Assembly: GCA_903831095.1 (NCBI GenBank)
Contig: CAIKWD010000026.1
Span: 29,290 to 93,289, forward strand
Reading direction: 5' to 3'
Source: Candidatus Staskawiczbacteria bacterium
GTDB taxonomy: Bacteria > Patescibacteriota > Minisyncoccia > Minisyncoccales > Staskawiczbacteraceae
DNA length: 64,000 bases
Shown: piece by piece, positions 3,619 to 47,505 of the stretch
Position numbering within the stretch: the stretch's first letter is position 1
How the letters are laid out: each line of letters starts with the position of its first letter
Position numbers and translations under genes: made by a program
The notes under the pieces: generated by a model
The model's input: only the letters and a program-made list of their open reading frames with translations
The model's database searches: none
What the model was told of the DNA's origin: nothing

Positions 3619-4269
3619 TTAATAACTTGGCCTATTAATTGTGGTTAAATGTGTTAAAGGTAAAAGCCTAATTGAAGCTTTGCCTATAATATTACTTTTA
3701 GATACAACTCCCCATGCTCTAGAGTCGTATGAACCCGTCCTATTGTCGCCCATTACAAAATATTGTCCATCTTTTATAACAGTTACTTCTGGAGTTGTCA
3801 GTAACATGCCTGAACTTGTATATACGTATGTTTTCAAATTAGCTGGCAGATATTTTTCATTCAAAACATTTGTCTTTCCATTTTCAGTTATTTTTACCTG
3901 GCCATTAGCTACTTCTACTGTATCTCCTGGAAGCCCAATTACTCTTTTAATAAATCGCTCTCCAGCAAATGTCTTACCAACAAATCCAGCGTTAAAAACA
4001 ACTACGTCGCCCCTTTCTGGAGCGTTAAATCTGTAGGATATTTCGTCAACAATCAAATAGTCATGATTTTCAAAATTTGGAGACATAGATTCTCCACTTA
4101 CAATAAAAGGCTGAAACAAAAAATAGCGTATTGGCAACACTATTACGGCCGCAATAACAATAATTTTGACCAACTCCCAAATAGTTTGCTTAATTCCCTT
4201 GCTTGCCTGTGCAGGCGGGTTATTTTGCTGATTTTCTGCTGATTTTTCTAAGTTGTTGTTAATCTCCAT
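3619..4269 (-). CDS. lepB: Signal peptidase I (S26 family)
   Basis: 216 aa with an N-terminal TM, the GESMSPNF (Ser box) and GDNRTGSYDSRAWG motifs. Confidence 0.85.
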   Translation of the reverse strand: MEINNNLEKSAENQQNNPPAQASKGIKQTIWELVKIIVIAAVIVLPIRYFLFQPFIVSGESMSPNFENHDYLIVDEISYRFNAPERGDVVVFNAGFVGKTFAGERFIKRVIGLPGDTVEVANGQVKITENGKTNVLNEKYLPANLKTYVYTSSGMLLTTPEVTVIKDGQYFVMGDNRTGSYDSRAWGVVSKSNIIGKASIRLLPLTHLTTINRPSY

Positions 4270-8271: not shown

Positions 8272-10299
8272 ATGAAAAGTTTAGTAATAGTTGAAAGCCC
8301 TACTAAAGCCAGAACAATCCAAAAGTTTCTTGGAAGCGATTTTGTAATACGCTCATCTTTTGGCCATGTAAGAGATTTGCCAAAAAGAGAACTGGGAGTT
8401 GATGTAGACAAGGGATTCGAGCCAAAATATGTTATACCAACAAAAGCTAAAAAGGTTGTAGCTGACTTGAAAAAGGAATCTGCCAAAGCCGATATAACAA
8501 TACTCGCTACCGACGAAGACCGCGAAGGAGAATCAATTGCCTGGCACTTGCAGGAAGCTTTAAAATTGAAAGATCCACAAAGAATTGTTTTCCACGAAAT
8601 TACTAAAACAGCAATTGAAGCAGCTTTAAAAAATCCAAGGCACATAGACATAAATTTAGTTGAAGCACAGCAAGCCAGAAGAATATTAGACAGGATTGTG
8701 GGATACAAAATTTCTCCGTTTTTGTGGAAAAAAATTGCCAAAGGTCTTTCAGCTGGAAGAGTCCAGTCTGTAGCTGTAAGATTAATTGTTGAAAGAGAAA
8801 GGGAAATCCAAAAATTTGTTGCCGAAGAATATTGGGGTATAGAAGCACTGCTCAAAAAATCCAACAATGAATTCAGTTCTTCACTGTCAAAAAAAGACGG
8901 CAAAGCAATTGAAAAACTTGAAATAAAAAACAAGGCCGAGGCAGATAAAATTTTAGGAGATCTAAATAGCGCCAATTACATTGTAGAATCCGTAGAAAAA
9001 AAAGAAACAAAAAAACATCCTGCTCCCCCATTTACAACCAGCACATTGCAACAAGCTGCTTGGCAAAGATTCAAGTTTTCTGCAAAAATGACAATGTCTT
9101 TGGCCCAAAGGTTATATGAGGAAGGAAATATAACATACCACAGGACAGATTCTTTAAACCTTTCTGAAATGTCGCTAAACGCTGCCAAGGATTTTATCTC
9201 TGGCAAATACGGACAAAATTATTGGGCTGGCAAAGTTGTAAAATATAAGACAAAAGATGGTTCTGCCCAAGAAGCTCACGAAGCTATAAGGCCAACCTTC
9301 GCTGATAAAAGTCCTGATTCATTGGCGGGAATTGACGCAAGACAATTAAAACTCTACACATTAATTTGGCAAAGGTTTATTGCCAGCCAAATGGCTCCAG
9401 CAGTTTTAGACTCAGTCTCTGCAGATATTAAAGCTAGCAATTATACATTTCGCGCAAATGGCCAAACAGTAAAATTTGATGGTTTCTTAAAAGTTTATCC
9501 TACAAAAACTGAAGAAACATTGTTGCCCGATTTAGAAAAAAACGACAAACTAGACTTATCAGAACTAAAATCCATACAACACTTCACTGAGCCTCCAGCA
9601 AGATATACTGAAGCAAGTTTGGTAAAAACTTTGGAAAAACATGGAATTGGTAGGCCTTCAACTTATGCCCCGATTATTTCAACTATTCAAGACAGAAACT
9701 ACGTAGCTGAAAACGACCAAAAAAGGTTTTTTCCAAGCGAAATGGGAGTCATAGTCAACGATGTCTTGGTTGAAAACTTTCCAGAAATTGTAGATATTGA
9801 TTTTACAGCCAAAATGGAAAAAGAATTAGACGAAGTTGCCGATGGAAAAGACACCTGGGCAAAAACCTGCCAAGACTTTTACACTCCTTTTGCTAAAAAT
9901 CTCAAGGAAAGATATGACAAAGTTATTAAGACAGACTTGACCCAAAAAACAGATAAAATTTGCCCAAAATGTGGTTCACCGTTAATTGAAAGGTTAGGAA
10001 GGTTTGGGAAATTTTATGCTTGTTCAAAATTTCCAGAATGTAAACATACAGAATCAATTGAAGGTGATCCTGATACTTTAGATATAGCCTGCCCAAAATG
10101 CAAAGAAGGAAAAATAACCGGGAAAAGAACTAAAAAAGGCAAAATATTCTACGGATGCAACCGCTTTCCAAAATGCGATTTTGCCTTATGGGATAAACCA
10201 ATAAATGAATTCTGCCCAACATGCAATTCAATACTCATAGAAAAAGGCAAAAAGATCAGATGCTCTAACAAGGAATGCGACTATATAAAAGATAAATAA
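8272..10299 (+). CDS. topA: DNA topoisomerase I with C-terminal Zn ribbons
   Basis: 675 aa with a Toprim N-terminus (VIVESPTKARTIQKFLG), the active-site region, and C-terminal C4 zinc fingers (CPKCGS...C, CPKCKEG...C, CPTCNS...C). Confidence 0.9.
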   Translation: MKSLVIVESPTKARTIQKFLGSDFVIRSSFGHVRDLPKRELGVDVDKGFEPKYVIPTKAKKVVADLKKESAKADITILATDEDREGESIAWHLQEALKLKDPQRIVFHEITKTAIEAALKNPRHIDINLVEAQQARRILDRIVGYKISPFLWKKIAKGLSAGRVQSVAVRLIVEREREIQKFVAEEYWGIEALLKKSNNEFSSSLSKKDGKAIEKLEIKNKAEADKILGDLNSANYIVESVEKKETKKHPAPPFTTSTLQQAAWQRFKFSAKMTMSLAQRLYEEGNITYHRTDSLNLSEMSLNAAKDFISGKYGQNYWAGKVVKYKTKDGSAQEAHEAIRPTFADKSPDSLAGIDARQLKLYTLIWQRFIASQMAPAVLDSVSADIKASNYTFRANGQTVKFDGFLKVYPTKTEETLLPDLEKNDKLDLSELKSIQHFTEPPARYTEASLVKTLEKHGIGRPSTYAPIISTIQDRNYVAENDQKRFFPSEMGVIVNDVLVENFPEIVDIDFTAKMEKELDEVADGKDTWAKTCQDFYTPFAKNLKERYDKVIKTDLTQKTDKICPKCGSPLIERLGRFGKFYACSKFPECKHTESIEGDPDTLDIACPKCKEGKITGKRTKKGKIFYGCNRFPKCDFALWDKPINEFCPTCNSILIEKGKKIRCSNKECDYIKDK

Positions 10300-38010: not shown

Positions 38011-38487
38011 ATGATAATAAAAGATATGAAGATATATTCGGAAAATAAAAAGGCTGGATTTAATTATGAAATATTAGAACGATTTGAGTCGGGGCTGGTT
38101 TTGTTTGGCCAAGAAGTAAAGTCTATAAGAACTGGGCATATAAATTTAGCTGGATCTTTTGTAACTTTAAAGCCACAAACTGGCGGAGGTTATCCAGAGC
38201 CATACTTGGTGGGAGTAAAAATACCTCCCTACCAGCCAAATAATGCTGGGGCAGACTACAATGAAGACCGCCCACGAAAGCTTCTTTTGAACAAAAAAGA
38301 GATAGTTTATCTTGCAGGAAAGTCAAAACAAGCGGGTTTTTCACTTATACCCTTGAAAATTTATGACAACAGTGGTAGAATAAAACTCGAATTCGGATTA
38401 GCTAAAGGAAAGAAGAAATACGACAAAAAAGAGAAAATAAAGAAGCGCGACGTAGAGCGCGAAGTTAATCGTGAATTATCGGCCTAA
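38011..38487 (+). CDS. smpB: SsrA-binding protein SmpB
   Basis: 158 aa; KKAGFNYEILERFESGLVLFGQEVKSIRTG is the SmpB signature. The true start may be the Met at 38026. Confidence 0.9.
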   Translation: MIIKDMKIYSENKKAGFNYEILERFESGLVLFGQEVKSIRTGHINLAGSFVTLKPQTGGGYPEPYLVGVKIPPYQPNNAGADYNEDRPRKLLLNKKEIVYLAGKSKQAGFSLIPLKIYDNSGRIKLEFGLAKGKKKYDKKEKIKKRDVEREVNRELSA

Positions 38488-38497
38488 TCGCCCACAT

Positions 38498-38852
38498 GGG
38501 GATGATTGTTTCGATGGATTGTTCTTTAAAGTAAGGCAAGTTGAGCTTTCTTGGGGCTCATTAATCTCCTGAGAAAAAACATAATTGCTAATTTATTTAA
38601 CTTTAATAAGCAACCAGCTTTAGCTTTTGCTTAAGCTGCATCCTTACCGATGATTCCTAATGGGCGGATCAAGGGTGTTATATTATTAGGATAGGCATCT
38701 TCATTCTCCGGGGAAATGCCAAAACTAAGGAGATAAAGCATTAAAAATTTTGCTAATTTTTTATTTAATGCTCGAAAAACAAAATCAGCTAAACTTGTAG
38801 AATTGCTTTTGAGAATTTTTCAGACGCGGTTTCAATACCGCCATCTCCACCA
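38498..38852 (+). ncRNA. ssrA: tmRNA (ssrA), about 355 nt
   Basis: 5' GGGGAUGAUUGUUUCGAUGG and 3' GACGCGGUUUCAAUACCGCCAUCUCCACCA (T-arm, acceptor, CCA). Acceptor pairing GGGGAUG/CAUCUCC. A candidate tag ORF reads ...GCU AAU UUA UUU AAC UUU AAU AAG CAA CCA GCU UUA GCU UUU GCU UAA (ANLFNFNKQPALAFA). It lies immediately downstream of smpB. Confidence 0.85.
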
Positions 38853-38874: not shown

Positions 38875-39381
38875 TTGGATAAAGTATTAATCAACAACTA
38901 TATAAGGGCTAAAGAGGTACGAGTAATTTCAGAAACAGGTGAACAACTTGGAGTAATGAATATTTTTCAAGCAATTGATTTAGCAAAATCAAAAGGTTTG
39001 GATTTAATTCAGGTGACTGAAAAAGTTGAACCTCCAGTCTGTAGAATTGCCAACTACGGAAAATACCTTTACCAGCAACAAAAAAAGGAAAAGAAAATGT
39101 CAAAACCAAAAGGCGGAGACTTGAAAGAAATAAGGCTAACATTTGGCATTTCCCCACACGACATGGAAGTCAGGGCAAATCAAGCAAAGAAATTCTTAGA
39201 TGACGGAGATAAAGTAAAAATAAACATGTCTCTTAGAGGAAGAGAAAAAGCAATGGGACAATTTGCAACAGACAAAGTAAAATTATTTCTAGAAAATTTA
39301 AATACATTAATACCAATTAAAACTGAAAGAGAGCTAAAGCGTGAGCCCAGAGGATTCACAATGATAGTCTCTAAACAGTAA
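38875..39381 (+). CDS. infC: Translation initiation factor IF-3
   Basis: 168 aa, IF3 N- and C-domains (IRAKEVRVISETGEQLGV...). It has a non-AUG (TTG) start, as is common for infC. Confidence 0.85.
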   Translation: MDKVLINNYIRAKEVRVISETGEQLGVMNIFQAIDLAKSKGLDLIQVTEKVEPPVCRIANYGKYLYQQQKKEKKMSKPKGGDLKEIRLTFGISPHDMEVRANQAKKFLDDGDKVKINMSLRGREKAMGQFATDKVKLFLENLNTLIPIKTERELKREPRGFTMIVSKQ

Positions 39382-39388
39382 ACATAAC

Positions 39389-39577
39389 ATGAATAAGACA
39401 AAAAAAGCCTTAGTGAAAAGATTCAAGATAACCAAAAATGGCAAAATCTTGAGAAGAGTAACTGGCCAAAACCACTATAGGTCGAAAAAAACAGGAGAAC
39501 AGAAGAGAAAAGGTCGCAAATGGATCACTCTCTCTGTAAAAGAGGCTGGAAGAATAAAAAAGTTTTTAACCAAATAA
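39389..39577 (+). CDS. rpmI: 50S ribosomal protein L35
   Basis: 62 aa, highly basic, KRFKITKNGKILRRVTGQNHY. Confidence 0.85.
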   Translation: MNKTKKALVKRFKITKNGKILRRVTGQNHYRSKKTGEQKRKGRKWITLSVKEAGRIKKFLTK

Positions 39578-39687
39578 ATTTAAACCGCGACGAATAAAGA
39601 GTTCAGCGTAAATTGGGCCTAGATGTATTAGATTATAATCAGCCCAACTTCCGAAGCAATCTTGTTCGCCTCGCTCACAAGACCGTG
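39578..39687 (+). promoter_or_regulatory. Structured rpmI-rplT spacer / rplT leader with hairpin AATTGGGC(39611-39618)/GCCCAA(39642-39647), including the GTG start
   Basis: A 107-nt spacer unusual for this operon. It is about 95% identical over roughly 90 nt to the inverted copy at 47126-47240. Confidence 0.6.
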
Positions 39688-40032
39688 TCACGAGTAAAAA
39701 GATCAGTACAAGCCCGCAAGCACAGGAAAAACATTTTAAAGCATGCTAAGGGTTTTAGACAAGCAAGAAATTCTAAATTTAAAGCCGCTAAAGATGCCTT
39801 GAGGCATGCTTGGTCTTATGCATTTAGAGACAGGAGAGTGAAAAAGAGAACCTTCAGAAACCTCTGGAACTTACAAATTAATGCTTTGGCCAGGGAAAAC
39901 GGCATAACATACAGCAGGTTCATTGAAGGATTAAAAAAGCACAAGATAGAATTGGACAGAAAAGTTTTATCAGAATTGGCAAACACTTATCCAGAAGTAT
40001 TTATAAAAATAGTGGAAGAAGTAAAAAAATAA
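39685..40032 (+). CDS. rplT: 50S ribosomal protein L20
   Basis: (V)SRVKRSVQARKHRKNILKHAKGFRQ matches the L20 N-terminus from the GTG at 39685. The ORF-track TTG start at 39613 adds a non-homologous extension and is rejected. Confidence 0.85.
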   Translation: MSRVKRSVQARKHRKNILKHAKGFRQARNSKFKAAKDALRHAWSYAFRDRRVKKRTFRNLWNLQINALARENGITYSRFIEGLKKHKIELDRKVLSELANTYPEVFIKIVEEVKK

Positions 40033-40076: not shown

Positions 40077-40544
40077 TTATTTTAAAGCAAGCACAAAATC
40101 ATTTGCCTTTTCCAATAGTTTTTTTGAATTTTTGAACGTTGTTTTTTTAACAGCTTCGTTAATTGGGAGCCAAACAAATCCTATGTGTTCATCAGAAATT
40201 TTAACATCCTTTGTTTTAGTTTCTGCCAAGAAAAAAACTACTAATTTAAAAACCCAAGGCGCTTTTTTCTTTGCCTCCCCTTCCAAGCCATAGCTTTTTC
40301 TGAAAAAGTACTTCTCTAATTCCTTAAATCCAGATATTATATTTAAATCTAAAATACCAGTTTCTTCGGCAATTTCTCTTTTTGCTGTTTCAAGTTCTGT
40401 TTCTCCTTCCTCAACATGACCTTTGGCAAAACCCCACTGCCCCTTTTTACCTTCATTGGACGGTGTATAATGCAAAAGCAGATAGTAAGGTATGCTATTT
40501 TCCATTCTATATATTATAGCTCCAGCTGATTTTTCTTTAGGCAT
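40077..40544 (-). CDS. NUDIX hydrolase
   Basis: 155 aa with the Nudix box GHVEEGETELETAKREIAEETGI. Confidence 0.8.
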   Translation of the reverse strand: MPKEKSAGAIIYRMENSIPYYLLLHYTPSNEGKKGQWGFAKGHVEEGETELETAKREIAEETGILDLNIISGFKELEKYFFRKSYGLEGEAKKKAPWVFKLVVFFLAETKTKDVKISDEHIGFVWLPINEAVKKTTFKNSKKLLEKANDFVLALK

Positions 40545-43897: not shown

Positions 43898-44509
43898 CTA
43901 ACTGACTTCGTACTTTATATTTTTTATTTTGTAGGTTATTTTTATTGGAGAAGAAACAACAACTGCGTCTCCGACCTTGTGCCCTAACAAAGCTTTGCCA
44001 ACAGGCGATTCATTGCTTATCTTTCCCAATGCTGGATTAGCTTCCAAGGTACCCATAATTACAAATTCATCTTTTTGCCCGTCTACAGATATTAAAACTT
44101 TAGCTCCAAGCCCAATAACACCTTTTTGATCTTTAGGTGGATTTTTAATAAGCTGATGACGGTCGATAATATTTTTTAATTCATCAATTCTAGACCTTAA
44201 AAAACCGACATCCTCCTGGAAACTTACAAATTCCGGATTCAAATCTTCAGATTCCAAAATTTTTGGGGCCTCTTGGTCCAAGGATTTCTTGTGCTCTAAA
44301 CTTACAAGATCTTCATACTCTTTTTTTATTTCCTTAAGTTTGCCCTTTGTTATGTAAAAAGTTTTTCCGTCCATTTTTATTACTTTAATTATATGGCTTT
44401 TCCATTTCTGTGGGTAATTAGAATAATATTCCTCTATGCCCAAAATGTCAATCCTTTTTTGAAAATATCTTAATTTTCCCATATACGCCGTCATATCCTG
44501 GTTCGACAA
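43898..44509 (-). CDS. greA: GreA/GreB family transcript cleavage factor-like protein (divergent N-terminus)
   Basis: The C-terminal 80 aa match the GreA FKBP-like domain (ISNESPVGKALLGHKVGDAVVV...). The start overlaps the upstream gene. Confidence 0.6.
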   Translation of the reverse strand: MSNQDMTAYMGKLRYFQKRIDILGIEEYYSNYPQKWKSHIIKVIKMDGKTFYITKGKLKEIKKEYEDLVSLEHKKSLDQEAPKILESEDLNPEFVSFQEDVGFLRSRIDELKNIIDRHQLIKNPPKDQKGVIGLGAKVLISVDGQKDEFVIMGTLEANPALGKISNESPVGKALLGHKVGDAVVVSSPIKITYKIKNIKYEVS

Positions 44510-45686
44510 AAACCTTGCCCTCCCTCATTTTTATCACTCCCTTGGCAATTTTTGACAAAGAATTTACTTTTATTTCCTCTTCTGTGGCCTCTAGAAGTAT
44601 TTTAATTTCCGAACCTAAATTATCTATTAATTTATTATAATATTTTAATACCTCCTTGGAAAGTGCAGAAACTCCTATTGATTCTGCAATTATCTCATTA
44701 AGTGGAATCAGACTCTTAAATGGAACTACATTTTTAGGAACAAACCCCTCTGGTCTATCGGCTAATTCTTCAACTCTGTTTAAAACTCCAATAACTAAGG
44801 GCTTTTTGCACTTTGGACAAATATTGTTGTATTTTTTTGACTGCTGAGGTTTCAAACTTAATTTACAAGATTTATGTCCATCATAATGATATTTGCCACC
44901 TTCAGGAAAAAATTCTATTGTACACAAAAATTTCTTATTATTTTTATTTTTTACAACATCCATGATACCTTTATAACTTAGTTCTGTATCAAAAACATTG
45001 GCTTCTCTACCAATTTTAGAAAGCGAATGGGCATCACTGTTTGAAACCAAATTAATTTTATCCAACTTTGACAGTCTCCAATTCATAGCCGGGTCAGAAC
45101 ATAATCCTGTTTCAATTGCATAAATATTTTTTGTCTGTTCCTCAAAGCATTCCTCCAAAGAATCAAACCCAGATTTTGACCCAAAAATAGCAAACCATGG
45201 CGTCCAAACGTGAGCTGGAATTATTAAGCAATTTTTATCTGCCTTTATAATAATCTTTACTAATTCTTTAGCGTCTAAACCTAAAATTGGCCGGCCATCT
45301 GCTTTTAGATTCCCTATCTGACCTAATCTTTTATTTATTTTTTCTACAGTATTTATAGAGGGTGCTAAAACAATAATATGAATCTTTCTAACTTTGCCTC
45401 CCCCGCCTTGACTCGACGAGGCAGGCTTAGAATAAATACAGCTTATTTCAGAACTTAAAACAAATCTAGTGCCAATATCAGATCCCTTCAGCTTAAAAAG
45501 GCCCCATTCTGCGGGGCGCAATTTACTTTTTATTTCCTTTAGCCATTTGGGGTGTGTAAAATCTCCAGTACCCAAAACATCAATTCCTTTTATTTTCGCC
45601 CACTTATCTAAATTAACCAAATTCATTAAGGGCGAAACTGCCCTGGAATATTTTGAGTGAATGTGAAAATCAGCTGTAAACTTCAT
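44448..45686 (-). CDS. endoQ: Endonuclease Q-like PHP-domain nuclease (COG1379)
   Basis: DFHIHSKYSRAVS, GTGD, PAHVWTPW, SNSDAHS, a CPKC zinc finger and a C-terminal GYDGVYGKIKIF line up with archaeal EndoQ motifs. Confidence 0.75.
   Translation of the reverse strand: MKFTADFHIHSKYSRAVSPLMNLVNLDKWAKIKGIDVLGTGDFTHPKWLKEIKSKLRPAEWGLFKLKGSDIGTRFVLSSEISCIYSKPASSSQGGGGKVRKIHIIVLAPSINTVEKINKRLGQIGNLKADGRPILGLDAKELVKIIIKADKNCLIIPAHVWTPWFAIFGSKSGFDSLEECFEEQTKNIYAIETGLCSDPAMNWRLSKLDKINLVSNSDAHSLSKIGREANVFDTELSYKGIMDVVKNKNNKKFLCTIEFFPEGGKYHYDGHKSCKLSLKPQQSKKYNNICPKCKKPLVIGVLNRVEELADRPEGFVPKNVVPFKSLIPLNEIIAESIGVSALSKEVLKYYNKLIDNLGSEIKILLEATEEEIKVNSLSKIAKGVIKMREGKVFVEPGYDGVYGKIKIFSKKD
45397..45428. repeat. 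Possible third GC-rich in-frame insert (encodes PASSSQGGGG in the EndoQ-like gene)
   Basis: gcctcccccgccttgactcgacgaggcaggc is a roughly 30-nt GC island. It corresponds to an insertion relative to archaeal EndoQ between the conserved C and the HHLLIFP block. Confidence 0.35.
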
Positions 45687-46655: not shown

Positions 46656-47129
46656 TTAAGCTTTGTAGACTTTATATCCTTCGTGAACTTTCTTTTCAAT
46701 TTTCATACCTACAGAATCTCCTTTTTTAGCTGAAGCAACTTCCACATGTTCAATTTGCATTGATTTTACTTTCTGCTCAAAATCTGTATCTTGCCCGCCA
46801 ACTACCCTAATTATTTCCCCGTCTTTCAGCGGAGCTTCCAACTCAATAACTGCTACCTCAATATTTGAAAAATAATGAGTTATTCGGCCAATTATTTTAC
46901 CCTCTGGCTCTACCTTGGGCATTATAGATTTTGACGCAATCTTTTTAACTGCTTTTTTGACTGCTTTTTTAGTAGCCTTTTTTACAGTTTTTTTAACTGC
47001 CTTCTTAGTTGTTTTTTTGACTGCCTTTTTTATAATTTTTTTCTTCTTAGAAACTACTTTCTTTCCCGATTTCTTCGAGGATCCTCGACTGCTTTGCAGT
47101 CGGGACTTTTTTGCTTTTGCTTTGGACAC
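46656..47129 (-). CDS. Fusion of a histone H1-like lysine-rich N-terminus (KKAVKK repeats) with an EF-Tu domain-2-like beta-barrel C-terminal domain; GTG start
   Basis: 157 aa. Tandem KKAVKKT repeats precede KIIGRITHYFSNIEVAVIELEAPLKDGEIIRVVG...SMQIEHVEVASAKKGDSVGMKI. The start codon and leader are copied from rplT. Confidence 0.55.
   Translation of the reverse strand: MSKAKAKKSRLQSSRGSSKKSGKKVVSKKKKIIKKAVKKTTKKAVKKTVKKATKKAVKKAVKKIASKSIMPKVEPEGKIIGRITHYFSNIEVAVIELEAPLKDGEIIRVVGGQDTDFEQKVKSMQIEHVEVASAKKGDSVGMKIEKKVHEGYKVYKA
46930..47040. repeat. Tandem approximately 12-21-nt DNA repeats encoding the KKAVKK lysine-rich repeats
   Basis: Repeated units such as tttttgactgcctttttt are visible in the sequence. 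Confidence 0.6.
47064..47105. repeat. GC-rich palindromic mini-element, family 2, copy D (in-frame in the H1-like gene; encodes SRLQSSRGSSKKSG)
   Basis: tcccgatttcttcgaggatcctcgactgctttgcagtcggga. It has a 14-nt perfect palindrome TCGAGGATCCTCGA flanked by TCCCGA/TCGGGA. Confidence 0.75.
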
Positions 47130-47240
47130 GGTCTTGTGAGCGAGGCGAACAAGATTGCTTCGGAAATTGGGCTAATTATAATCTTATACATCTAGGCCCA
47201 ATTTACGCGGAAATACTTTGTTCTGTCGCGGTTATTTACT
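47126..47240 (-). promoter_or_regulatory. Inverted duplicate of the rplT leader (rpmI-rplT spacer, hairpin and GTG start), fused upstream of the H1-like/EndoQ operon
   Basis: The reverse complement of 47126-47238 aligns with 39583-39690. Two 22-nt and 31-nt blocks are identical, and the substitutions cluster in the hairpin loop. The stem AAATTGGGC(47164-47172)/GCCCAATTT(47196-47204) is a perfect 9 bp. Confidence 0.7.
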
Positions 47241-47241
47241 T

Positions 47242-47403
47242 AATAATTTGTACATATGACCTTTGCCTTTATATTATCACTATACGAAAATTTTTCAAAC
47301 AAAAACCGCCTTCGTAAGAAGCCGGGCTTTGAAGAGGGGGATAATAATTTACAGCGATCTCGGTGAACTTCTCGAGCTGAATTCGGACAATGAATCCAGA
47401 CAT
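47242..47403 (-). CDS. Candidate small ORF (53 aa) with a strong AGGAGG SD; not in the ORF track (below its size cutoff)
   Basis: AGGAGG is followed 9 nt later by ATG, giving MSGFIVRIQLEKFTEIAVNYYPPSSKPGFLRRRFLFEKFSYSDNIKAKVICTNY. The ORF runs through a terminator-like hairpin and ends exactly where the L20-leader copy begins, so it may instead be a non-coding region. Confidence 0.25.
47296..47330 (-). terminator. Terminator-like hairpin with a GUAA tetraloop (CCGCCTTC-GUAA-GAAGCCGGG) and a T-run on the minus strand
   Basis: Read from the sequence. It lies about 180 nt downstream of the 47506-47859 gene and upstream of the L20-leader copy. Confidence 0.45.
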
Positions 47404-47505
47404 ATAATTTTTCCTCCTTCGCTAAAAGTTATTATGTCCTTAAGATAAATCTCGCACCCCCTCATAACTGCCATTGTATTCTAAAACCCGTATAAGTCAA
47501 GATAA

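Follow-up and report, generated by a model that had tools for sequence, protein, structure and literature searches.

A probable family of structured messenger RNA leaders, gained together with their start codons, in Parcubacteria-type bacteria

Introduction

Leaders bound by ribosomal protein L20 are known from Firmicutes (Rfam RF00558) and from E. coli, where the rpmI operator forms a pseudoknot. Two further kinds of RNA element bear on the case described here. Hairpin operators through which one protein serves a whole regulon are found in eukaryotes (the iron-responsive element, IRE, and its binding protein IRP) and in bacteria (the GGA hairpins of CsrA/RsmA), and structured sites that allow initiation independently of a Shine-Dalgarno (SD) interaction are found in the E. 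coli rpsA leader and at the hairpin-assembled sites of phage T4 gene 38 type. The present element, ~100 nucleotides (nt) in length, occurs twice and in inverted orientation in a 64-kb stretch of DNA, referred to below as the window, from Candidatus Staskawiczbacteria, a member of the Patescibacteria or candidate phyla radiation (CPR). One copy (copy A) lies between rpmI and rplT and the other (copy B) before the first gene of a minus-strand operon that encodes an EndoQ-like protein.

Comparison with these systems reveals partial likenesses. As in the IRE and CsrA operators, a hairpin with an invariant loop is found in the 5' region of many mRNAs in a position to affect initiation, but the leader is far larger (~100 nt, with two hairpins and a conserved 5' segment), its start codon lies in a helix and is copied with it, and it has no SD that could be occluded. 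Translational riboswitch platforms and the leaders of ribosomal protein genes also have covarying helices, conserved junction nucleotides and a start codon in a helix; unlike them, the element precedes no coherent ligand-related set of genes, its main hairpin can be replaced and no Rfam family matches it. The rpsA and gene 38 sites resemble it in using structure instead of a canonical SD as an efficient initiation signal for highly expressed genes, but each serves a single gene, whereas the leader is reusable before dozens of genes and across species. Near-identical non-coding segments before unrelated genes, gained in a lineage-specific way, are shared with mobile promoters (PMC3488235) and with the REP/BIME and Correia/NEMIS miniature repeats. 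From these the leader differs in its strict sense orientation, its fusion to the start codon, selection on RNA pairing and a promoter that lies outside the element. By analogy, the action of the leader is probably closest to that of a regulon-wide hairpin operator or of a structured SD-independent initiation site, and it spreads in the manner of a 'mobile promoter' (PMC3488235) but is not one.

On balance we favour the view that both repeats belong to a lineage-restricted family of ~100-nt structured mRNA leaders of Parcubacteria-type CPR, which form a self-contained module for the initiation of translation, or its control, without an SD. Comparison with relatives demonstrates that genes gain the element together with its start codon; in this genome, rplT and the gene that opens the EndoQ-like operon have both done so. 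CPR/Patescibacteria account for a large share of bacterial diversity and have tiny genomes with few known regulators. To our knowledge, almost nothing has been learned of how they control gene expression.

Two copies of the leader in the window

The arms of the inverted repeat occupy 39602-39699 and 47115-47212 (98 nt, 92% identity, in the 64-kb window). Its core, from GCGTAAATT to GTGTC, is identical at 81 of 84 positions (39606-39689 versus 47208-47125; three mismatches). The GTG start codons of rplT and of the minus-strand operon both lie inside the repeat, and both genes open with GTG-TC. The initial annotation had described the repeat as an inverted copy of the rplT leader, and coordinates and sequence confirm what it said of the repeat itself, of the 107-nt spacer between rpmI and rplT (39578-39684) and of the shared GTG start and GTG-TC opening. 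Sub-blocks of 39 nt and 23 nt occur exactly twice each in the window, with none expected from shuffled sequence. Both junctions of the repeat recur in independent assemblies, as short contigs from six other samples (L001-L006), so the repeat is real and not an artefact of assembly. Similarity between the copies ends at the edges of the element, and thus no larger segmental duplication is involved, as the initial annotation had also stated.

Copy A, taken as the whole element, spans 39572..39690 on the plus strand and scores 118.8 bits (E=3e-30) with R1, the covariance model of the family described below. Three parts can be distinguished. A conserved 5' segment (GCGACGAAUAAAGAGUUCAG, 39587..39606, plus strand) is complementary to part of the 3' hairpin, with which it could possibly form an alternative helix or pseudoknot. 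It is followed by a long, variable and covarying hairpin 1 (P2; 39607..39653, plus strand), in which compensatory changes were counted over 75 copies, and by hairpin 2 (P3; 39656..39686, plus strand), identified from pair counts, which reads 5'-GCAAUCUUGU (UCGCCUCGCUC) ACAAGACCGU-3' with the loop, at 39666-39676, in parentheses. In copy A, P3 ends with the first two bases, G and U, of the rplT start codon. Copy B (47124..47243, minus strand; R1 110.9 bits, E=6e-28) is placed between the ancestral promoter and 5' untranslated region (UTR) and the first gene of the minus-strand operon. Its P2 lies at 47161..47207 (minus strand, from pair counting) and its P3 at 47128..47158 (minus strand), with the loop at 47148-47138 and a 3' strand that takes in G47129 and U47128 of the start codon.

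Two of the three substitutions between the copies fall in or beside the apical loop, and the third changes an A.C mismatch in copy A to an A:U pair in copy B, through which the stem of copy B consists of nine perfect pairs. The earlier description of substitutions at the loop, with the stem kept or even improved to a perfect 9 bp in the second copy, was therefore accurate. In the variable P2 region, copies A and B are 94% identical, compared with a family median of 71%, and each is the nearest neighbour of the other, which indicates that within this genome they arose recently from a common source. The identity of the two over 35 nt at the 3' end is uninformative on age, since the family median there is 97%. 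At the 5' end, copy A is near the family consensus and copy B is aberrant. The TC that follows GTG in both copies is the ancestral second codon of rplT (TCA in relatives). These two shared nucleotides and the 5' end of copy A give a weak hint, which does not settle the matter, that the copying may have run from A to B.

Absence of the leader from both loci in relatives

A protein-guided scan recovered 48 related rplT loci. In most of 26 related loci, the closest ones included (L20 84-88% identical), the rpmI-rplT spacer is only 1-20 nt long and the start codon of rplT is ATG. Seventeen relatives keep synteny with the minus-strand operon. In all of these the first gene of the operon starts with ATG behind a short AT-rich UTR and a promoter (...TGATAATATAAAGCAAAGGTC...) that is also found in the window, and relative to them the window has ~100 extra nt exactly at the start codon, where ATG is replaced by GTG. 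As the leader is missing from relatives at either locus, both genes acquired the element in this lineage. The promoter-like site 5' of copy B (TTGAAA-16-TGATAATAT; 47271..47298, minus strand) is conserved before the leaderless orthologs, and it is the predicted promoter of copy B and its operon, ancestral and outside the leader.

BLAST of the leader against the 48 related rplT loci gave one weak match, in L020; it lies immediately 5' of nusA, whose GTG start forms its end. Model R1 found a diverged L020 copy between infC and rpmI.

The rpmI-rplT junction is, separately, an insertion hotspot in relatives. L012 (~9880-10000) carries a 119-nt insert at this junction with a 12-bp GC-rich stem (CCCCGCCCUCUA...UAGAGGGCGGGG), and L014 (~4005-4114) an unrelated, AT-rich palindromic insert of 108 nt. 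A 71-nt insert in L010 (9929-10000) scores 10.3 bits with the leader model, a weak value, and has a hairpin with a CCUCGCU loop right before the ATG.

The leader family in metagenomes

A block of 19 nt (TTGTTCGCCTCGCTCACAA) is common to the window copies and the L020 copy and was used to scan metagenomes, an exact match being required. At least 120 metagenomic stretches were matched. The same ~100-nt architecture is present in 105 of the 123 matches listed, the remainder being unrelated GC-rich or other coding contexts. Among the matches listed, all 105 copies are sense-oriented and the start codon stands exactly 4 nt past the 19-mer in 102 of 104; the start codons are GTG in 100 cases, TTG in three and ATG in one (n=104). 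An in-frame stop lies upstream in 88 of 89 unique copies, so the element is not coding.

The genes that follow the leader are diverse and unrelated, though for the most part of the housekeeping kind: the 103 distinct downstream proteins, again among the matches listed, match 85 Pfam families. These include trigger factor, CutA, SDR, S18, L10, Hsp70, TrpRS, L31, RecA and FBA, and also SerRS, DnaJ, SSB, MraZ, MreC and NusA, while L11, L27, S14, S21, GreA, RNase Y, SecG and NUDIX were read from N-terminal sequence alone. The occurrence of the same leader, start codon included, before genes of so many families supports the notion of a portable translation-initiation module, which had been put forward as one of two explanations in the initial annotation. 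The same leader genes (tig, rpsR, rplJ, dnaK, trpS and others) recur on contigs whose proteins differ by ~20-25%, which indicates that the association of leader and gene is inherited as well as newly gained. We estimate about one copy per 30-40 kb of a complete genome. On viral contigs no leader copy was found.

Model R1, used to reduce the ascertainment bias of the 19-mer, added ~17 copies that lack the exact 19-mer, and in these the 3' part varies. Variation is also seen in hairpin 1. In some copies (L057:4852-5005, L087:4359-4512, L149:2206-2360 and L163:3688-3843), an extra hairpin module of ~35 nt (…CCUGCAACCAUCU…AGGUUG…) is nested in its apical loop, and in L085 (1909-2098 and 3854-4044) this module occurs twice in tandem. 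Hairpin 1 is replaced by a different structure in L080, L110, L133, L154 and L157, and by a short GC hairpin (GUCCCCGCUUAGCGGGGC) in eight copies.

Rfam gave no match to the leader, either over the whole window at the gathering threshold or at both loci with permissive E-values. No description of it was found in the literature, which was searched also by motif string, nor in a ribosomal-leader survey, a 224-motif survey, a 50-genome survey or a 2026 preprint on intergenic features. The family is large and apparently undescribed so far.

RNA structure and covariation

The structure was derived from an alignment (A4) of 75 standard-architecture copies by RNAalifold and pair counting. RNAalifold gave two adjacent hairpins, and in the completed model 86.6% of cells are paired, compared with 32-40% when the partners are slid. 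Compensatory change is seen in 14 pairs; the covariation score is 0.194 against 0.075 in shuffles, and none of 500 shuffles reached the observed value. This covariation check bears out the earlier assertion that the hairpin is a conserved RNA structure.

In P2, compensatory changes affect eight of the 12 pairs among the 75 copies, one column pair being UA in 46, GC in 23 and CG in five. The base of P2 is formed by two invariant G-C pairs with AA directly after. The U of UUCAG in the 5' segment (U35) pairs with an A after P2 (UA 62, CG 11), and the GCGA motif of the same segment is present in 41 of 92 copies where 5.7 would be expected.

P3 holds the start codon. Its base pairs with the first two start-codon bases, and the partner of the first of these covaries: C:G in 71 copies, A:U in two (both UUG copies) and U:G in one, with U:A in the AUG copies L072 and L095. 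The near-universal use of GUG is thus a consequence of the partner base being C. The next pairs of P3 are UA in 62 and CG in 13. A tandem A.C mismatch is conserved, with Watson-Crick pairs in its place in five to six copies. The G.U pair at the base of P3 is invariant (74/75), so it is the sense strand that functions and the RNA that is under selection. In the L020 nusA copy, all three start bases are paired (CACUU/AAGUG).

The loop of P3 (UCGCCUCGCUC) is an 11-nt, C/U-rich sequence located 9-19 nt before the start. L077 and L119 have CUGC/GCAG in their inner stem, not UUGU/ACAA, together with the same loop. The stem of the L020 rpmI copy is another one altogether, of 11 bp (CAUGAAUUUAU/AUAAAUUCAUG; -10.2 kcal/mol, z = -3.1); it ends in an AUG start, and the loop keeps CCGCU. 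Such exchange of stems with retention of the loop indicates that what is conserved is the sequence of the loop but the structure of the stem.

In its minimum free energy (MFE) fold, the full leader forms an alternative helix in which the 5' end pairs with the first half of the 19-mer. This helix excludes P3 and would therefore make a switch. Its pairing is conserved in 70.8% of cases, with one-sided but no compensatory changes, and variants that restore P3 do not restore it. A two-state switch that uses this helix is compatible with the data but unproven.

The upstream AAGGUG was considered as a distant SD brought near by the hairpins and was rejected, the middle G being present in only ~47 of 75 copies and replaced by U or A in the others. 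A loose scan of the reference loci for the loop motif in a hairpin that runs into a start codon gave 62 hits against 35-66 with scrambled motifs, and is uninformative.

Position in operons and relation to promoters and SD sites

Among 85 copies, 42 begin within 30 nt of an upstream same-strand open reading frame (ORF), as is the case at rpmI-rplT. In L149 there are three copies in 1.7 kb of one operon, before mraZ, rsmH and the next gene. A promoter scan revealed no sense-strand site inside copy A or copy B. On the main coding strand, GGAGG is followed at 3-11 nt by a start codon in 31 of 52 instances, so the genome uses SD sites elsewhere; the leader has none. Taken together, the operon-internal copies, the L149 operon, the ancestral promoter upstream of copy B and the lack of an SD point to a role in initiation at the RNA level rather than to a promoter.

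Proposed mode of action

We propose that the leader would act in cis, at the RNA level, on initiation. A metastable P3, with its conserved tandem A.C mismatch, would present or occlude the start codon, and the invariant loop, situated where an SD would be, may be a docking site for one common trans-acting partner. This partner could be ribosomal (the 30S subunit or one of the ribosomal proteins) or else a dedicated regulator that binds RNA. Through it, one signal would govern initiation at a set of housekeeping genes. A positive role would be favoured by the typically high expression of the genes, the lack of an SD and a start codon that travels with the module, and a negative or tunable role by the pairing of the start codon, the use of GUG rather than AUG and the operator-like loop.

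Several observations weigh against this preferred view. P3 alone has a stability of ~ -8 kcal/mol in the window copies, no greater than that of shuffles; occlusion of the start codon would then be weak, and the support for P3 is comparative, not thermodynamic. A sequence complementary to the loop was sought in the 64-kb window, the adjacent tmRNA included, and none was found. The demand for an exact 19-mer inflates the apparent invariance of the 3' part, and homogenisation within genomes is possible, so that the covariation counts are not independent events. Two good copies, L077:7601-7719 and L140:727-845, have no start codon at the canonical position; both have an ATG ~14 nt downstream (…GACCCGAAAUAAAUUUAUGG…) and may be decayed copies or a variant arrangement. 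Finally, the family is patchy, with clear copies only in L020 among the 48 reference rplT loci, a distribution that would also be expected of a selfish repeat.

A bolder version of the proposal is a possibility that we hold only tentatively, and would not bet on. In a clade of CPR, a copy-and-paste, structure-based module for ribosome entry or control would replace the SD before 20-30 core genes per genome and be recognised through its loop by the ribosome or a factor. If this were true, genes would join the regulon just by acquiring the module, which brings its own start codon. It would be a bacterial counterpart of a shared leader or of one like an internal ribosome entry site, and a main global layer of gene control in organisms with very few transcription factors.

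The more modest reading also has consequences. One leader on genes for ribosomal proteins, chaperones, RecA, SSB, NusA, GreA, aminoacyl-tRNA synthetases and division proteins would define a post-transcriptional regulon that is testable, and could represent a mechanism of initiation that does not rely on the SD interaction. The covariance model is ready for use in annotating such genomes, and the leader itself could serve as a portable expression element in the genetic tools under construction for Patescibacteria.

Alternative explanations

The alternative that survives best, though we consider it unlikely, is that the element is a selfish or neutral intergenic repeat, of the kind of miniature inverted-repeat transposable elements, REP or Correia sequences, or an element of RNA processing or stability, which spreads and is simply tolerated or trims polycistronic mRNAs, with no specific role in initiation. 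Its patchiness among related genomes, the recent gains at the two window loci, the high similarity within genomes and the frequent intercistronic position would all be expected of such a repeat, as would the nested hairpin modules in P2 of some copies, doubled in L085, and the unrelated hairpin inserts at the rpmI-rplT junction of L012 and L014. Against this stand the uniform sense orientation of the copies and their fixed distance of 4 nt to a start codon that is part of the copy (102/104). The first base of that codon covaries with its partner, the loop is kept while the stem drifts, and the same orthologs keep the leader across ~20-25% protein divergence. By eye, moreover, the two window insertions have neither terminal inverted repeats nor target duplications, and the ends of the element (GCGACGAA... 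and ...CAAGACCGTG) are not inverted repeats of one another.

We regard a riboswitch as quite improbable as well. Here the covarying helices and the conserved nucleotides at their junctions would build an aptamer that senses a signal of global state, for example an alarmone, a nucleotide, Mg2+ or pH, and binding of this small molecule or ion would tip the leader towards either the start-codon hairpin or the alternative 5' helix. Stems that covary and unpaired nucleotides that are highly conserved would suit this explanation (14 pairs have compensatory change, and none of 500 shuffles reached the covariation score), and so would the enclosure of the start codon in a helix, which is seen in translational OFF platforms. 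The mutually exclusive helix is the MFE fold of the full leader and is paired in 70.8%, and the conserved tandem A.C mismatch could be sensitive to protonation. However, the genes served (ribosomal proteins, chaperones, RecA, SSB, aminoacyl-tRNA synthetases, division genes, SDR, CutA) point to no metabolite. The alternative helix lacks compensatory change and is not restored where P3 is, and the outer part of its 5' strand is missing in ~40% of copies. P2, which makes up most of the RNA, can be replaced by a short GC hairpin or can bear an extra module, which would be unusual for the core of an aptamer, and no Rfam family matches.

The other explanation offered in the initial annotation was that an L20 operator had been copied to a second operon and had brought it under the control of L20; more broadly, L20 or another ribosomal protein would be the trans-acting factor for the family. 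This now seems very improbable. A leader is present in the infC-rpmI-rplT operon, near a start codon, in more than one lineage, albeit not at one junction: it stands before rplT in the window and before rpmI in L020, and a weak relative may stand before rplT in L010 (10.3 bits). L20-binding leaders are said to be defined by two consecutive G-C pairs plus an AA dimer (PMC7247131), which the two conserved G-C pairs and adjacent AA at the base of P2 superficially match. This resemblance carries very little information, and in the dimer itself the second A is paired, as its covariation with an upstream U shows. Scanning 39380-39760 with cmscan at E<=10 and permissive filters gave no match to the Rfam L20_leader, nor was there one at the gathering threshold over the whole window. 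The window leader stands before rplT, unlike L20 leaders, which stand before infC or rpmI. At this site most relatives, even the closest ones, whose L20 is 84-88% identical, lack the leader and have a spacer of 1-20 nt and an ATG start. The element is thus absent from orthologous loci with the structure of the operon unchanged, a finding that the initial annotation itself had named as a refutation, and copy B is likewise an insertion relative to the 17 syntenic relatives. Genes of 85 Pfam families, the majority non-ribosomal, follow the same element. The leader is very probably not a member of the L20-leader family.

Putative mobile promoters are defined by highly similar upstream regions before non-homologous genes (PMC3488235), and the leader meets that pattern and has TATAAG/ATATAT-like strings in the apical loop of P2, but propagation of a promoter or 5' region that rewires the transcription of the genes behind it is an explanation with very little chance of being right, because copy B lies downstream of a promoter that is kept in leaderless relatives, copy A and about half of all copies (42/85) are operon-internal, neither window copy has a sense-strand promoter site in the scan, the short-hairpin variants lack the TATA-like loop, and covariation and G.U pairs show selection on RNA.

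Genes at the two loci

The plus-strand order in the window is smpB, tmRNA, infC, rpmI, the 107-nt spacer and rplT. The rpmI gene for L35 (39389..39577, plus strand; Pfam Ribosomal_L35p) is directly 5' of copy A, and rplT (39685..40032, plus strand; Pfam Ribosomal_L20, E=1.3e-36) starts at GTG 39685, the Pfam domain covering residues 3-108 of its 115-amino acid (aa) product. The L20 of relatives begins MSR[IV]KR at an ATG equivalent to GTG 39685. Public gene calls for the window instead start L20 at TTG 39613 (39613-40032, 139 aa), with 24 codons of the leader translated. The real start of L20 is GTG 39685 (115 aa), and recognition of the leader corrects such calls, which run 24 codons too long, through the leader. 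A coding N-terminal extension of L20, for which the frame of copy A is open to TTG 39613, was ruled out by stops in other copies; the same frame in copy B is closed by TAA and TAG. Further upstream, smpB and then the tmRNA gene (Rfam 110 bits) lie directly 5' of infC at 38011-38852 and form a compact translation-rescue/initiation cluster.

The minus-strand operon encodes a 157-aa Lys-rich/beta-barrel protein, DUF5680, an EndoQ-like PHP protein, a GreA-like protein, HD, MFS, PolX and NUDIX. Its first gene, after copy B (46656..47129, minus strand; GTG 47129-47127), specifies the 157-aa protein, with a Lys-rich N-terminal tail and a C-terminal beta-barrel domain. The sole match of this protein in Pfam is a sub-threshold one to GTP_EFTU_D2 (EF-Tu domain 2), and NCBIfam has no family that matches it. 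The EndoQ-like protein matches TIGR00375 with E=1e-52, under the curated cut-off. From the label 'H1-like/EndoQ' that this operon had been given, the second part can therefore be kept in the form 'EndoQ-like', whereas a Lys-rich tail joined to a beta-barrel is not simply H1-like.

The GreA-like ORF in its longest form (203 aa, TTG start; 43898-44509, minus strand) overlaps the end of the EndoQ-like gene (44448-45686) by 62 nt. The gene is called as 158 aa in another assembly and GreA models align from about residue 46, so that its true start is probably further downstream.

Upstream of the same operon lies a candidate non-coding RNA of ~130 nt (47334-47463, minus strand), with a promoter-like site of its own (47500-47473) and an intrinsic terminator (47327-47297). 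It would form a long irregular hairpin (-47 kcal/mol), closed by GAGGGGG/CCCCCUC and with an apical loop AUUGUCC. It has no Rfam match at E<=1, and many relatives have a conserved version of its sequence before the orthologous operon. An 18-aa ORF with a GGAGG site lies within the RNA but is probably spurious.

The window NUDIX gene (40077-40544), which follows rplT and abuts the PolX gene, has no leader. A NUDIX gene with a similar N-terminal sequence carries one in L062 (5029-5502), from which it appears that membership of the set of leader genes differs between genomes.

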